Assembly: GCA_036788155.1 (NCBI GenBank)
Contig: DAIQNY010000001.1
Span: 1 to 50,187 of the forward strand
DNA length: 50,187 nt
Direction: 5' to 3'
From: Actinomycetota bacterium
Lineage (GTDB): Bacteria; Actinomycetota; Thermoleophilia; UBA2241
This document shows positions 1-7,273 of this stretch, piece by piece; position 1 is the first letter of the stretch, and each line of letters opens with the position of its first letter. A model generated the notes under the pieces. That model saw nothing but the letters and a program-made list of their open reading frames with translations. It was not told where the DNA came from and ran no database searches. Both the position numbers and the translations under genes were made by a program.

Positions 1-223
1 CGGCGGCCTTCATGGCCTCGGCGCCCTGGACCAGCTCGGGGAGGAAGAACTCGCCCTTGCCGAACAGGTCGCCGACCTCCTCGATGCCCTTCACGAAGCC
101 CTTGTCGAGGATCTCGCCCGGGGCGACGCCCGCGTCAAGACCCTCCTGGGCCAGGCGCTCGGCGTCCTCGACCTCGCCGTCGATGACGCTCTGCTTCATC
201 TGCTCGAAAAGCTCGTCAGACAT
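1..223 (-). CDS. Corrinoid (cobalamin)-binding protein of a methyltransferase system; N-terminal part only, gene runs off the window start
   Basis: Absent from the ORF track because it is truncated. The reverse complement from ATG (223-221) reads MSDELFEQMKQSVIDGEVEDAERLAQEGLDAGVAPGEILDKGFVKGIEEVGDLFGKGEFFLPELVQGAEAMKAA. This matches the helical cap that precedes the B12-binding Rossmann domain in MtbC/MttC/MtgC-type corrinoid proteins. AAGGAGG lies 4 nt upstream of the ATG. Confidence 0.75.
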   Translation of the reverse strand, partial: MSDELFEQMKQSVIDGEVEDAERLAQEGLDAGVAPGEILDKGFVKGIEEVGDLFGKGEFFLPELVQGAEAMKAA

Positions 224-294
224 TGGTCCTCCTTGCACGATCTGTCCGCCTATGCGTCCGCAAGAACGCGTGGGTTCCACACCCCAGGGCGCCT

Positions 295-324
295 ACGATA
301 TGCGGCGCCGACAGGACCCGTCAA
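295..324 (-). promoter_or_regulatory. Putative sigma70-type promoter for the corrinoid protein gene (TTGACG-N18-TATCGT)
   Basis: The minus strand reads TTGACG (324-319), an 18-nt spacer, then TATCGT (300-295). This is about 70 nt upstream of the ATG at 223. The same two hexamers at the same spacing occur at 2185-2214. Confidence 0.45.
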
Positions 325-409
325 CCAAGTAAGTTGAAGACGTACATGCGCCAAGTATCAGGGCATGAGGAGGGGGAGCAAGGAAGCGGACACTGATGGT
401 CCGGAAGAC

Positions 410-1558
410 CTAGGAACGACCTTCTGTCCGGCCGCGCAAGAAGCGGTCGAAGGCTTCCAGGCCCTCCTGAAGACCGAGTCTTCCGATGCCGACGCGGAAG
501 TGGTCCTTGGGTACGGCATCGGTGATCTCGGACTCGTACATGGAGGCCGGCAGGACCAGCACGCCTTCGGCGAGCAGCAAGCGCCGGCTGAGCTCCTCCA
601 CGTCACCGGCCCTGTAACGGGGGAAGCAGACGCAGCCGCCGTCGGGCGGACGCCAGTCGAAGAGGTCCGCCCAGCGGGCGAAGAAGTCGTCGAACACCGG
701 GCGGTTGGCGGCCACGATGCCGCGGTTACGCTCCCAGATCGCCTCTCGATGTCGCAGCGCGACCGCAGCCAGGTACTCCGCCGGTCCGGCGTTGCAGATG
801 GTCGTGTAGTGCTTGCGCTTCTCCAGGCGCTCCAGCAGCGCGCGGTCGCGGCACGCGACCCAGCCCACACGCAAGCCCGGCAGCCCATAGGACTTGGAGG
901 CCACGTTGAGCGAGACCGCGGTCTCGGAGAGATCGGCTGCCTGGGGCAGCGTCCGGGACGGGTCCAGCTCGATGCCGCGGTACACCTCGTCGCAGAACAG
1001 GCAGATGCCGCGCTCGTCGCAGAGCGCGACGAGCTCGCGGAAGGTCGCCTCGTCGGGCACGTAGCCGGTCGGATTGTGCGGGTAGTTCACGGCGACGAGT
1101 CTGGTGGTCGGCCGCACGAGGCGACGGAGCTCGTCGAGGTCCAGCGCCCAGCCGTCTTCGCGGCGCGGGACGAGCGCGCTGACGTCGGCGCCAGTGGCCA
1201 CCGTGACGGTCTCCATCGCCTGGTAGCACGGCACAGTGACGACGGCGTGATCGCCGGGGCCGACCAGCTCCTGCATCGCCCAGAAGAGGCCCTCCTCGGC
1301 GCCGGCCAGGGCGAGCACGTGGTCGGCGTCGACGTTCTCGTAGGTGCCGGCCACGGCCTCGCGCAGCTCCGGCGTGCCCCACGTCTCGATGTAGGAGAGG
1401 GGGAGCTTGAGAAGGCCCTCGCGGTCAGCGTCGGTGCCGAGGGCCAGGAGCTCCTCGATCGTCATGCTCTGCGCGTCAGACGCCGTGAGATGGTACCGCA
1501 CCTTGAACTCCCACTCGCCCATGTACTCCTCGAGACGAAACGTGCGCAGCGACTTCAT
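410..1558 (-). CDS. PLP-dependent aminotransferase, class I/II fold
   Basis: 382-aa ORF with typical class I/II features: NYPHNPTGY, and SKSYGLPGLRVGW containing the PLP-lysine context. Its ATG overlaps the stop of the upstream YheO-like gene (ATGA at 1555-1558). Confidence 0.85.
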   Translation of the reverse strand: MKSLRTFRLEEYMGEWEFKVRYHLTASDAQSMTIEELLALGTDADREGLLKLPLSYIETWGTPELREAVAGTYENVDADHVLALAGAEEGLFWAMQELVGPGDHAVVTVPCYQAMETVTVATGADVSALVPRREDGWALDLDELRRLVRPTTRLVAVNYPHNPTGYVPDEATFRELVALCDERGICLFCDEVYRGIELDPSRTLPQAADLSETAVSLNVASKSYGLPGLRVGWVACRDRALLERLEKRKHYTTICNAGPAEYLAAVALRHREAIWERNRGIVAANRPVFDDFFARWADLFDWRPPDGGCVCFPRYRAGDVEELSRRLLLAEGVLVLPASMYESEITDAVPKDHFRVGIGRLGLQEGLEAFDRFLRGRTEGRS

Positions 1559-4303: not shown

Positions 4304-4424
4304 TCTGCTCCCTCGTAGGTTGCGGGCAGACTGAACCTACCACGGCCGAGTCGACCGGGTCGCGGCGGGCTGGACACCAACAGCCTCGCGACTCCACCGA
4401 TGAAAGACGGGGTGGCGACATCGA

Positions 4425-5828
4425 TCACGCCGGCAGCGCACCATCCACGGGCTCGAAACGGGCCTGGAAGAAGCGCAGGTCGCTGGGCTCGTAGACCATC
4501 CGCAGGCCGCGCACCTTCTCGCGGCGGTCCCAGACCTCGGCCACGGACTCGGCCACAACGTCCATGTGCGCCTGCGTGTACACGCGGCGCGGGATGGTGA
4601 GCCGGACGAGCTCCAGGGCCGGGCGCCGGTTCAGACCCGTTTGCGGGTCCCGCCCGGCGCTCACGTTGCCGCGCTCCATGGCGCGCACGCCGCCGTCCAG
4701 GTACAGCTCGGCAGCCAGCGCCTGCGCTGGGTACAGGTCCTGGTCCAGGTGCGGCAGGAACGCCCTGGCATCGAGGAACACGCCGTGACTGCCGATGGGC
4801 ACGACGATCGGCACGCCGTAGCCCTGCAGCTTCTCGCCGAGGTACTTCACCTGTCCGACGCGCGCCCTGATGTGATCGTACTCGACGCTCTCACGCAGGC
4901 CGATCGCGACCGCCTCCATGTCACGGCCGGCCATGCCGCCGTAGGTGTGCAGGCCCTCGTACACGACCACCAGGTTGCGGCACTGCTCGAAGACCTCCCA
5001 CTCGTTCAGCGCCAGGAAGCCGCCGATGTTGACGAGCGCGTCCTTCTTGGCGCTCATGGTGCAGCCGTCGGTGAGCGAACAGATCTCCCTGACGATCTCG
5101 GCCACCGACTTCTCGGCGTAGCCCGGTTCGCGCTCCTTGATGAAGTACGCGTTCTCGGCCACGCGCGTCGCGTCGTGGATGATCCGGATACCGTGCTCGG
5201 AGCAGAGCGCCCGGACCCGGCGCAGGTTGGCGAGACTGATCGGCTGGCCTCCGGCCATGTTCACGGCTGTGGCGATGCAGACGTAGGGGATGCGCTCCGG
5301 TCCCACCTCGTCGATGACCCTTCGCAGCTTGTCGAGGTCGACGTCGCCCTTGAAGGGATGCTCGCAGGCGGGGTCGTGCGCCTCGTCGATGATGACGTCG
5401 AGGAACCGGCCGCCCGCGAGCTCCTGGTGGAGGCGGGTGGTGGTGAAGTACATGTTGCCCGGCACGACGTCGCCCTGCTTGATGAGCGTCTGGCTGAGCA
5501 GATGCTCGGCGCCACGGCCCTGGTGAGTCGGCACGAGGTACGTGTACCCGTAGACTTCCTGGACCGCCGCCTCCAGGTGGTAGAAGTTGCGGCTGCCGGC
5601 GTAGGCCTCGTCGCCCAGCATCATGCCTGCCCACTGGCGGTCGCTCATCGCGCTCGTGCCGGAGTCGGTGAGCAGGTCGATGTAGACGTCCTCGCTGCGC
5701 AGCAGGAACGTGTTGTGACCGGCCTCCCTGATGGCAGCCTCGCGCTCCTCGCGCGTCGTCATCCTGAGGGGCTCCACCATCTTGATCTTGAACGGCTCCG
5801 CCCAACTGCGGTGTCGTGGCTCGGTCAT
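4425..5828 (-). CDS. Tryptophanase / tyrosine phenol-lyase family beta-eliminating lyase (PLP)
   Basis: 467 aa from [20 protein letters not shown]. It carries TnaA/TPL hallmarks: [18 protein letters not shown], and [12 protein letters not shown] with the PLP lysine. GGAGGA lies upstream of ATG 5828. The 737-aa track ORF (to 6638) is an out-of-frame upstream extension over the mttB-like gene. Confidence 0.85.
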
Positions 5829-5875
5829 GAGATCGTCCTCCGGTGGTCGTGAGCGGCAGGAAGGCCGGCGTGTGC

Positions 5876-7273
5876 TCAGGCGTAGCGCGCGACGATGCGG
5901 TCCAGCTCGCGGAGGGCGTCGTCGGACGGTCGATAGGCTCGTCCGTCGGCGCGCAGGTCGCGCGTGCGCTGAGCGGCGCGCTCGAGCAGGGAGGCCGCGC
6001 CTGCGGCGTGCCAGGCCTCGAACGAGTCCTGGCTGACCAGGCGCGGCCGGAAGAATTCGCGCAGGTGCTGCCGCGCATGCCTGCGGCCGAGATGGCTGCC
6101 GCCGGGTCCGGTTGCCGCGATCTCTGCCTCCGCCAGGGACTCCTCGTCGACGCGGATACCGACCAGGTACGCCTTCGCCCAGCCCACGAGCTCGTCGGCG
6201 ACCACCAGGGCCTCGTAGGACGACGCGGTGCCGGAGGCGACGTAGCCCAGATCGTGTAACAGCGTGACCCCGGACTGCGCCCCCACTATCAGCGTCATCC
6301 CGGCTTCGAACGCCCATTGCTCGTCGAGCAGGAGCGAATCCGAGCAACCTCCGGTACCGAACGACGGGAGCCCGTACTGCCGGGCCATGTCCGCCGATGC
6401 CTGCTGTGTGGCCATCTCCTCGGGTCCGCAGTACACGATGTGCCCGGAGCGAGGTTCCATCCAGCCCTGCGCGGTCCCGTAGACGAAGGGTGCGCCAGGA
6501 GCGGCGAGTTGAGCGATGACGAGTCCGCTGAGCATCTCGGCATTGGCCAGCAGCACGCATCCGGCGACCGAGGCCGGCGCCGTCGCCCCCGGCAGGAATG
6601 CGCTGGCGTAGACCATGGGGATCCCCAGCCGCGCGCAACCCACCAGGCGGTCGACCGAGTCCCTGCCGTGCGTGAGCGGAGGCGTGGGCATGGCGTAGAT
6701 GGCCCAGCTGTCACCGGCGCCGCACGCCTCCGCCATGGCCTTGAAGGCCTCGAGGTGTCGCGCGTCCTCAGGCACCATGATGAGCGGCTTGGACGTGCCG
6801 CGCAGCATCGCGGCGAACTGTGCGACCGGCGCGTCTGCCGCCGGCAGCTCGTGTGGATGGACCATGGACAAGACGTAGTCGATGTTGCCCAGCTTCTCCT
6901 GCAGCGCGGCCATCTCCTCGACGTCGTCGAGCACGCCCCGGCGACGGTCGCGAGCCCTGGGTCCGACCACGTAGATGCAGTCGGATCCGGATCCGTAGTG
7001 GACCGGGCCGGACGTGAGCTCCAGCGGCGAGGTGCCTGCCCGGGATGCAAGGGCGAAGTGGCGGGGCGCCGCGGTGAGGGCGTCCTCGATCATGCCGGCC
7101 GGGATGCGCACGCGCGAGCCGTCAACCTTCGCCCCGGCCGCGGCCAGTCGCGCGAGCATCTCGCCGTGCTGCACCTCGACGCCAGTCGTCCCCAGCACGC
7201 GGAGAGTGGCGTCGTGGACCGCGGCGCACCCCTCGTCGTCGAGGGCTCTCGTCTGCAACCGGTACTGCGGCAT
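5876..7273 (-). CDS. MttB-superfamily (trimethylamine methyltransferase-like) methyltransferase, non-pyrrolysine type
   Basis: About 465 aa. The N-terminal pattern [63 protein letters not shown] is typical of the MttB family. The reading frame is uninterrupted (no in-frame TAG). ATG 7273 has GGGAGGA 5 nt upstream; the track start GTG 7276 is one codon earlier. Confidence 0.85.

Follow-up and report, generated by a model that had tools for sequence, protein, structure and literature searches.

What is a gene for a tyrosine phenol-lyase (TPL; tpl) doing directly behind a gene of the MttB methyltransferase superfamily (here mttB-A), and do the genes that follow them on the same strand belong to the same pathway? 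This question is raised by a 50,187-nt stretch of DNA (the window; 68% G+C) that makes up positions 1 to 50,187 of contig DAIQNY010000001.1 in the Actinomycetota assembly GCA_036788155.1 (Thermoleophilia, UBA2241), whose host is an uncultured Thermoleophilia-type actinobacterium and probably an anaerobe. Near the start of the window mttB-A and tpl are followed by sucC, sucD, a yheO-like regulator gene, an aminotransferase (AT) gene and a corrinoid protein gene. An original prediction made from the letters of the DNA alone held that the MttB-type protein and the corrinoid protein bracket a single catabolic module. The data presented here suggest instead that three modules of a fluid catabolic island very probably meet in window 1-8037. 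When the roles proposed below for MttB-A, the corrinoid protein and TPL are added to this mosaic, the package as a whole is judged only a little more likely to be right than wrong.

The basic observations of the original prediction held up: all seven genes lie on the minus strand at the positions it gave, ATGA overlaps couple sucC to sucD and yheO to AT, and the terminal codon is the sole stop in the mttB-like frame, so that it contains no TAG. The gene identities were right as well, and a lyase that had been called TnaA/TPL-like could be narrowed to a tyrosine phenol-lyase by TIGR02618. The model built on them was a seven-gene operon that deals with an N-methylated amino acid or an amino-acid betaine, in which MttB and the corrinoid protein would demethylate the substrate and the lyase, SucCD, YheO and the aminotransferase would process the product. 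The single strand, the short gaps and the two ATGA overlaps all fit such an operon, and two relatives (L028 and L087) keep TPL, YheO, AT and MttB-A together. However, the comparison with relatives makes this model improbable. A profile of the MttB clade was searched against a genome collection and returned 80 loci, nearly all of them from metagenome-assembled genomes (MAGs) of Thermoleophilia or Actinomycetes, and the window proteins were located in these 80 and in further contigs to which homologs of SucC and of the aminotransferase had led (loci and contigs carry L numbers below). What is conserved in them are three separate units, mttB-tpl, sucC-sucD and yheO-AT-corrinoid, which are differently combined in L028, L087, L168, L169 and L170-L173. 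Neither the content nor the order of the relatives' loci is that of a single co-evolved seven-gene operon. The bracketing idea fails a test that the original prediction had itself set, as relatives do not keep the synteny of the genes in between.

The middle module, sucCD, belongs to another operon altogether. Blastn aligned window 4447-7702 with L168 3259-1 and window 2263-4314 with L168 12038-9990, and ~6.7 kb of L168 that hold IclR, 3HCDH, BKACE/SDR and thiolase genes and two cyclase genes are missing at window 4315-4446. Since window 4315-4446 replaces those ~6.7 kb, the adjacency of tpl and sucC is a deletion junction, and among the relatives compared sucCD stands beside tpl in the window only. 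The order in L168 is XRE, then mttB-tpl-IclR-3HCDH-BKACE/SDR-thiolase-cyclase-cyclase-sucC-sucD; in L170 and L171 it is tpl-AFOR-IclR-3HCDH-BKACE-SDR-thiolase-cyclase-cyclase-sucC-sucD, followed by a class-III aminotransferase and AthL-like molybdenum enzymes. Orthologs of sucCD (78-89% identical) lie 3' of the cyclase genes in L168, L170 and L171 and at the head of an operon in L169, and the 73 nt 5' of sucC in the window are homologous to the L169 region where sucC opens that operon, which also speaks against a seven-gene transcript. The relatives' set of SDR, "cyclase", 3-hydroxyacyl-CoA-dehydrogenase-type, BKACE and thiolase genes matches the anaerobic phloroglucinol pathway of Clostridium scatologenes, which consists of PGR, DPGC, TfD, TAL and a thiolase (PMC10470551). 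A carnitine pathway had been considered for the 3HCDH-BKACE-thiolase genes; this reading was replaced since an SDR gene, a pair of "cyclase" genes and AthL-like molybdenum enzymes accompany them. The latter are several AthL-like molybdopterin enzymes with Fer4_11/CarboxypepD_reg small subunits (L170 13596-21158 and L171 13606-21158) that resemble pyrogallol-phloroglucinol transhydroxylase.

Both subunits of the window's SucCD pass NCBIfam equivalog cut-offs for an ADP-forming succinate-CoA ligase, while the TIGR01016 score is just under its cut-off (357.3 bits against 375.55). These lineages have two types of SucC, one 74-89% and the other 51-57% identical to that of the window. Neither a second sucCD nor another MttB gene was found elsewhere in the window (tblastn; Pfam on ten unclear open reading frames (ORFs); remaining ORFs by eye). 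From its context in relatives, sucCD appears to be the surviving tail of a phloroglucinol operon that plays no part in the link between mttB-A and tpl.

The third module, yheO-AT-corrinoid, has a methyltransferase partner of its own. L169 (MAG GCA_012514235.1 at NCBI) has 88-90% DNA identity to the window and is collinear with window 1-4376 (L169 14312-9929 by blastn) and window 10868-19221 (L169 9905-1542), the window segment between these two being wholly absent. Its genes run from ABC exporters to sucC-sucD-yheO-AT-corrinoid, then tetR, then mttB2-SBP_bac_5-arginase. L172 and L173 likewise have yheO-AT-corrinoid, tetR and mttB2, with proteins 71-93% identical and mttB-tpl not nearby; L172 lies on the same contig as L171, ~45 kb away. 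The block thus occurs without mttB-A or tpl in three relatives. The corrinoid orthologs in these blocks are 88-98% identical, and mttB2 is 46-49% identical to the window MttB. These blocks indicate that the conserved MT1 (the methyltransferase that acts on the substrate) beside the corrinoid gene is mttB2 and not the gene at 5876-7276, which is a further point against the one-operon model. Just 5' of yheO-AT-corrinoid in L172 (3859-8231) and L173 (4418-8215), two pairs of corrinoid and URO-D genes with MerR/TetR-type regulators make the region a methyltransferase island. We take these pairs to be O-demethylase-type systems.

The corrinoid gene is cut by the edge of the window, and the metagenome contig L002, which is identical to the window, gives the full 216-aa protein. 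It carries GDIHEIG (D-x-H-x-x-G) and scores 229.5 bits against TIGR02370, above the cut-off of 215.3. L002 reaches 2.6 kb past the window edge and aligns with L169 over its full length at 90.5% identity. The original prediction had placed the corrinoid:tetrahydrofolate methyltransferase (MT2) and a RamA-type activase, if present, beyond position 1, but these 2.6 kb complete the corrinoid gene and then bring a convergent one that in L169 encodes a TetR-family regulator, and neither MT2 nor activase was found there or in the L169 syntenic flank. Its statement that the window itself lacks both was borne out (Pfam and tblastn; remaining ORFs by eye). The locus accordingly does not hold a complete corrinoid methyl-transfer system of MT1, corrinoid protein, MT2 and activase; the latter two are expected elsewhere in the genome. 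Past tetR, synteny predicts mttB2, SBP_bac_5 and an arginase-family gene in the window genome.

The aminotransferase is of a PRK07324/GntC/VioD-like subfamily, with the best NCBIfam models all under their cut-offs, and its closest solved relative is 3op7, which has no assigned function. Its orthologs are widespread in Thermoleophilia-type contigs (76-94% identical), and the yheO-AT pair is kept in L028, L054, L087, L169, L172 and L173. In L054 (2458-9341) an MttB paralog (45% identical) that lacks the carboxylate-binding arginine discussed below is directly followed by a copy of AT (55% identical), an SBP_bac_5-like gene and the yheO-AT pair (77% identical). Adjacency of an MttB gene and an aminotransferase gene recurs with different paralog pairs in L054, L025 and L076.

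Promoter-like sites between the genes also weigh against a single transcript. A promoter scan found sites 5' of yheO, the corrinoid gene and the XRE gene, three promoter-like sites in 8.2 kb where 0.3 were expected, although transcription units are not settled by such a scan. The sites 5' of yheO (2185-2214) and the corrinoid gene (295-324) have identical hexamers on the minus strand, TTGACG-18-TATCGT, and comparison of the two regions revealed no extended common element beyond them. The gaps are 47 nt between mttB-A and tpl, 121 nt between tpl and sucC and 186 nt between AT and the corrinoid gene. Between sucD and yheO the gap is 5 nt, or ~74 nt if yheO starts at 2178; this ATG is the more likely start and agrees with the metagenome gene call. 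A terminator scan gave nothing convincing, and an Rfam scan of the whole window returned zero matches and hence no cobalamin riboswitch. The features are collected in Table 1.

Table 1. Genes and other features of the window that bear on the three modules.
Feature	Positions	Strand	Basis or remark
mttB-A, MttB-superfamily MT1	5876-7276	minus	466 aa, PF06253 E 2.5e-76
tpl, tyrosine phenol-lyase	4425-5828	minus	467 aa, TIGR02618
sucC	3146-4303	minus	NF001913 398.7 bits (cut-off 370)
sucD	2253-3149	minus	NF004230 416.8 bits (cut-off 336)
yheO-like regulator	1555-2247	minus	PAS_6 + HTH_22
Class I/II-fold PLP aminotransferase (AT)	410-1558	minus	PF00155
Corrinoid protein gene, 5' part, 74 codons	223-2	minus	B12-binding_2; window edge cuts gene
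XRE-cupin (PuuR-like) regulator	7429-8037	plus	HTH_3 + Cupin_2; divergent from mttB-A
Promoter/operator-like block 5' of mttB-A	7329-7380	minus	CTTGACT + short inverted repeat
Deletion junction tpl/sucC	4315-4446		blastn vs L168
Segment missing in L169: tpl, mttB-A, XRE, PAS histidine kinase	4377-10867		blastn

Once the seven-gene row is taken apart, the first module is left as the one that joins a methyltransferase to amino-acid catabolism. In nine loci (the window, L003, L006, L008, L011, L085, L087, L088 and L168) mttB-A stands beside tpl on the same strand, with MttB identities of 69-100% and a gap of mostly ~35-60 nt. The XRE-cupin gene is divergent from mttB-A or tpl in L003, L011, L087, L168, L028 and L089. 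Alignment of the intergenic regions showed that the promoter/operator-like block is kept whether the first gene is mttB-A (window, L003, L011, L087 and L168) or tpl (L028), and the XRE gene's own site, TTGACG-18-TACAGT at 7392-7421, is likewise conserved. L028 has a rearranged order, XRE and then tpl-yheO-AT-mttB-corrinoid in a putative single operon, so that mttB-A lies directly 5' of the ortholog of the module-3 corrinoid gene. In a neighbour-joining tree of MttB the TPL-linked genes form one subclade, with L028 at the base of the clade of at least 60% identity. Taken as genomic evidence, this points to mttB-A-tpl as a conserved unit, a putative bicistron with a conserved promoter/operator region. 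The original prediction had not recognised the layout from characterised systems, and our literature search also found no paper that links MttB with tyrosine phenol-lyase, and only two in which Thermoleophilia appear alongside MttB.

The lyase of this pair is, as far as sequence can tell, an authentic tyrosine phenol-lyase. It scores 781.6 bits against TIGR02618, above the cut-off of 720.7, while both tryptophanase equivalog models stay under theirs, and it shares 63% identity with its Citrobacter freundii counterpart. F36, Y71, R100, F123, T124, D214, R217, K256, K257, R381, R404, F448 and F449 are all kept, among them Lys257 and Tyr71 for catalysis and Arg381, Thr124, Phe448 and Phe449 for phenol binding.

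MttB-A is a clear member of its superfamily but does not seem to belong to any group with a known substrate. It matches PF06253 with 257.2 bits (cut-off 25) over residues 9-464, and its score against the pyrrolysine MttB model TIGR02369, 303.9 bits, is under the cut-off of 525. The closest solved relatives are Desulfitobacterium hafniense MtgB and Methanosarcina barkeri MttB (E 1e-50 to 1e-43); MttB-A is ~26-30% identical to MtgB and pyrrolysine MttB, and the range is 24-30% when a Sinorhizobium protein is added as a third comparator. An AlphaFold2 model (pLDDT 69, pTM 0.75; pLDDT <50 in the active-site stretch 309-351) matches 7XCL, 9YCE, 2QNE and 4YYC with TM 0.71-0.73 and probability 1.00, MtgB and M. 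barkeri MttB about equally well at 26% identity, which gives the TIM-barrel fold of the family. In MtgB the residues that bind glycine betaine are Y97, R312, H348 and F356, and R312 is kept in every member characterised so far, acidic quaternary amines being the substrates throughout (PMC13080624). By profile alignment these four residues correspond to S96, F306, H341 and G349 in MttB-A, so that it does not carry the residue set of the quaternary-amine methyltransferases MtgB, MtpB, MtcB, MtyB and MthB. Position 96 is S or T across the window clade and F306 and G349 are invariant there; indeed, the active-site motifs are nearly invariant over the whole clade of at least 55% identity. The carboxylate-binding arginine of the R312 type is thus missing from MttB-A, which belongs to an uncharacterised class of the superfamily.

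The same pattern is found in very many uncharacterised paralogs of Thermoleophilia, Syntrophomonadaceae, Chloroflexi and 'Ca. Formimonas', and the R312-type arginine is commonly replaced by Phe or Trp in uncharacterised paralogs. Cys311, which aligns with the pyrrolysine of 7XCL in the profile alignment, was dropped as a special trait of MttB-A, as Cys, His, Thr or Val at this position is common among such paralogs too. MttB-A thus seems to fall outside the groups of known specificity and yet to be ordinary among the uncharacterised majority.

The model proposed here is that mttB-A-tpl, divergent from the XRE-cupin gene, is driven from the conserved promoter/operator region. As an MT1, MttB-A would transfer a methyl group from a methylated nitrogen compound to the Co(I) corrinoid protein, as is known for the family. 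The module-3 corrinoid protein probably serves both MttB-A and MttB2; this sharing is proposed because mttB-A adjoins the corrinoid ortholog in L028 and because MtqC of Eubacterium limosum serves three MttB members. As in that organism, MT2 and the reductive activase would be encoded elsewhere. TPL is predicted to convert tyrosine to phenol, pyruvate and ammonia, and the demethylation would either yield, or be co-induced with, tyrosine, which TPL would then cleave. An aromatic, tyrosine-related substrate is possible, and its basis is now the conserved mttB-tpl pair alone and not the seven-gene row. The pair looks functional in that it has been retained through many rearrangements with short spacing and a conserved promoter region, and in that L028 brings tpl, yheO-AT, mttB and the corrinoid gene into one putative operon. 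On these grounds a methylated tyrosine-type aromatic amine or amino acid, handled in a pathway shared with TPL, is put forward as the best lead to the substrate of MttB-A, tentatively and as more likely wrong than right. A more specific claim, that MttB-A is the first MttB-superfamily enzyme to act on an aromatic tyrosine-derived methylated amine and that its product is cleaved by TPL, is rather unlikely; the candidates on this aromatic reading may be N-methyltyrosine, tyrosine betaine or a related phenolic methylamine.

Several points weigh against the model. The pair can come apart: mttB-A occurs without tpl in L086, L005 and L009, and XRE is followed by tpl without mttB-A in L089, so each gene can work alone. 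Of 80 TPL loci surveyed in diverse metagenomes, none of the 78 others has an MttB neighbour; the pairing appears limited to one lineage, and inheritance could account for part of its conservation. Near-identical active-site motifs in very different neighbourhoods suggest one common substrate that is not tyrosine-specific. The chemistry also poses difficulties, as a single demethylation of a betaine gives no primary amine usable by TPL or an aminotransferase, and we know of no MttB member that demethylates a secondary amine. The missing carboxylate-binding arginine argues against alpha-amino-acid betaines bound in the manner of MtgB. In L004 an ABC transporter and a TAG-containing MtbB homolog next to the MttB gene hint at simple methylamines. 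Finally, read-through from tpl into sucCD may occur.

The L004 locus and others of the wider clade were examined for their neighbours. In L004 an MttB 71% identical to that of the window lies 3' of the ABC transporter and the MtbB homolog with an in-frame TAG. The latter (5400-6980, with a frameshift near its start) has the TAG at 6617 (KIDGY-TAG-AGTGDP), ~110 codons before the stop. We take this to be the expected pyrrolysine position of MtbB, and the gene suggests pyrrolysine use in a Thermoleophilia MAG. A different MttB paralog, L038 3896-5218, is interrupted by an in-frame stop at precisely the site of pyrrolysine (LPSCIAGA*GDAK). It has the IYGAGM motif found in true trimethylamine methyltransferases, and two paralogs without pyrrolysine lie 5 kb away. 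In sister subclades, whose MttBs are 65-67% identical and have the same active-site motifs, recurrent neighbours are IorA-like and PaaK-like genes, a GlcD-like FAD oxidase, an M20 peptidase, an octopine-dehydrogenase-like gene and lyases of the HAL family. The HAL-family lyases lie 1-4 kb from MttB in L012, L018, L023, L029 and L035 and have the motif GSLGASDLA and no Ala-Ser-Gly MIO triad. A missing triad is the hallmark of trimethylammonia-lyases, which free trimethylamine from amino-acid betaines, and histidine betaine and ergothioneine are the substrates of MIO-less trimethylammonia-lyases of this family (bioRxiv 10.64898/2026.04.22.720169). Such surroundings give a loose pointer to aromatic amino acids, betaines of these and methylamines, and fix no substrate.

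A different explanation is that the two genes are neighbours with no shared pathway. MttB-A would act on a simple or non-aromatic methylamine, for example trimethylamine that is imported or freed by MIO-less trimethylammonia-lyases, and TPL would act independently on tyrosine, the two being co-regulated only as members of a catabolic island. The positions of R312 and F356 are Phe and Gly in MttB-A and Tyr and Gly in pyrrolysine MttB, whose substrate has no carboxylate; the same motifs occur in subclades beside MIO-less HAL-family lyases or beside the TAG-containing MtbB and ABC transporter; and the separate occurrence of mttB-A and tpl would also be expected. However, no non-pyrrolysine enzyme is known to use trimethylamine, mttB-A-tpl outlasts many rearrangements and keeps its promoter region, and L028 rebuilds one putative operon with both genes. 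This explanation is judged about as likely as the shared pathway, and we would call neither probable.

It could also be asked whether MttB-A is an O-demethylase-type MT1 for methoxylated phenolics that feeds the polyphenol/phloroglucinol genes found 3' of tpl in relatives. The islands of L011, L088, L168, L170 and L171, with AFOR, phloroglucinol genes and AthL-like molybdenum enzymes, would give such an enzyme a setting, and Phe306 and Gly349 suggest a hydrophobic pocket. However, action on methyl ethers is not known for any member of the MttB superfamily, the same genomes hold corrinoid and URO-D pairs, the usual type for O-demethylation, TPL is given no role, and the window lost the phloroglucinol genes yet kept mttB-A-tpl. 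Such a function is very improbable.

A pathway shared by MttB-A and TPL would be of interest for what it implies. To our knowledge, non-pyrrolysine MttB paralogs without a known substrate number in the thousands, and each of the six substrates characterised is a small amine. If the more specific claim above for MttB-A is true, the many arginine-less paralogs would gain a substrate class, and anaerobic methylotrophy would be linked with the formation of phenol in soils, peat and digesters. The MttB-TPL pair gives a concrete test set, methylated tyrosine-type compounds, for one arginine-less clade. The mosaic also holds a caution, in that catabolic islands of Thermoleophilia type are often reshuffled and a tidy same-strand row in one genome can be a deletion artefact.

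Other features of the window stand apart from these modules. A PAS histidine kinase on the plus strand (8200-10847) is split over frames (PAS 8200-10281, HisKA/HATPase 10137-10847) by a frameshift or sequencing error and lies inside the segment absent from L169. A second apparent frameshift splits an HtrA-like protease at 47247-48427 (plus strand; frames 47247-48077 and 47765-48427), recognised by eye from a trypsin-like part and a PDZ-like C-terminus. It is followed on the plus strand by a second YheO-type regulator (48578-49378; PAS_6 + HTH_22) and an ORF with a P-loop-like GKTT motif (49400-50187) that runs off the window end. On the minus strand, 35393-41270 holds ParB, ParA and RsmG-like genes (by eye), which suggests a region near the chromosome origin. 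A threonine-aldolase-like Beta_elim_lyase (37969-39117) is encoded beside them, as is a DUF6421 protein (39114-41270). The window and L169 differ by a second indel at 19222-21547, where a gene for an MMPL-type membrane protein (19233-21536) is absent from L169.

Comparison with known systems shows both likenesses and departures. MtgB/MtgC of D. hafniense (PDB 2QNE, 9YCE) is the best sequence match among solved structures; MtgB is, like MttB-A, a TIM-barrel MT1 without pyrrolysine, and its partner is, as proposed for MttB-A, a small corrinoid protein that binds B12 and is of TIGR02370 type. However, MttB-A changes three of the four betaine-binding residues (Y97 to S, R312 to F and F356 to G) and keeps only H348, and mttB-A has no adjacent MT2 gene and lies in a putative transcript with TPL. 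The best structural match to the MttB-A model is M. barkeri MttB (PDB 7XCL; TM 0.73). Both have a G-T/S-G motif, lack Arg where MtgB has R312 and carry Gly where MtgB has F356, but MttB-A has no UAG, has Cys311 in the place of pyrrolysine and, at the site of MtgB H348, has His for Tyr. In E. limosum, MtqC is common to MtpB, MtcB and MtyB, and MtqA (MT2) and RamQ (activase) are encoded in other clusters (PMC8604678). This system is the model for one corrinoid protein shared by MttB-A and MttB2, although MtpB, MtcB and MtyB keep the equivalent of R312 and act on acidic quaternary amines (PMC13080624), whereas MttB-A is without that arginine.

The TPL of the window has all catalytic and phenol-binding residues in common with that of C. 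freundii (PDB 1TPL, 2EZ1). The setting of the gene differs, as the window tpl is second in a putative bicistron behind an MttB-family gene and near an XRE-cupin regulator. Enterobacterial tpl is controlled by TyrR. The phloroglucinol cluster of C. scatologenes has the gene set that relatives carry as one operon between tpl and sucCD. The window lost those genes and kept only sucCD, and the Clostridium cluster has a CoA-transferase in place of sucCD.

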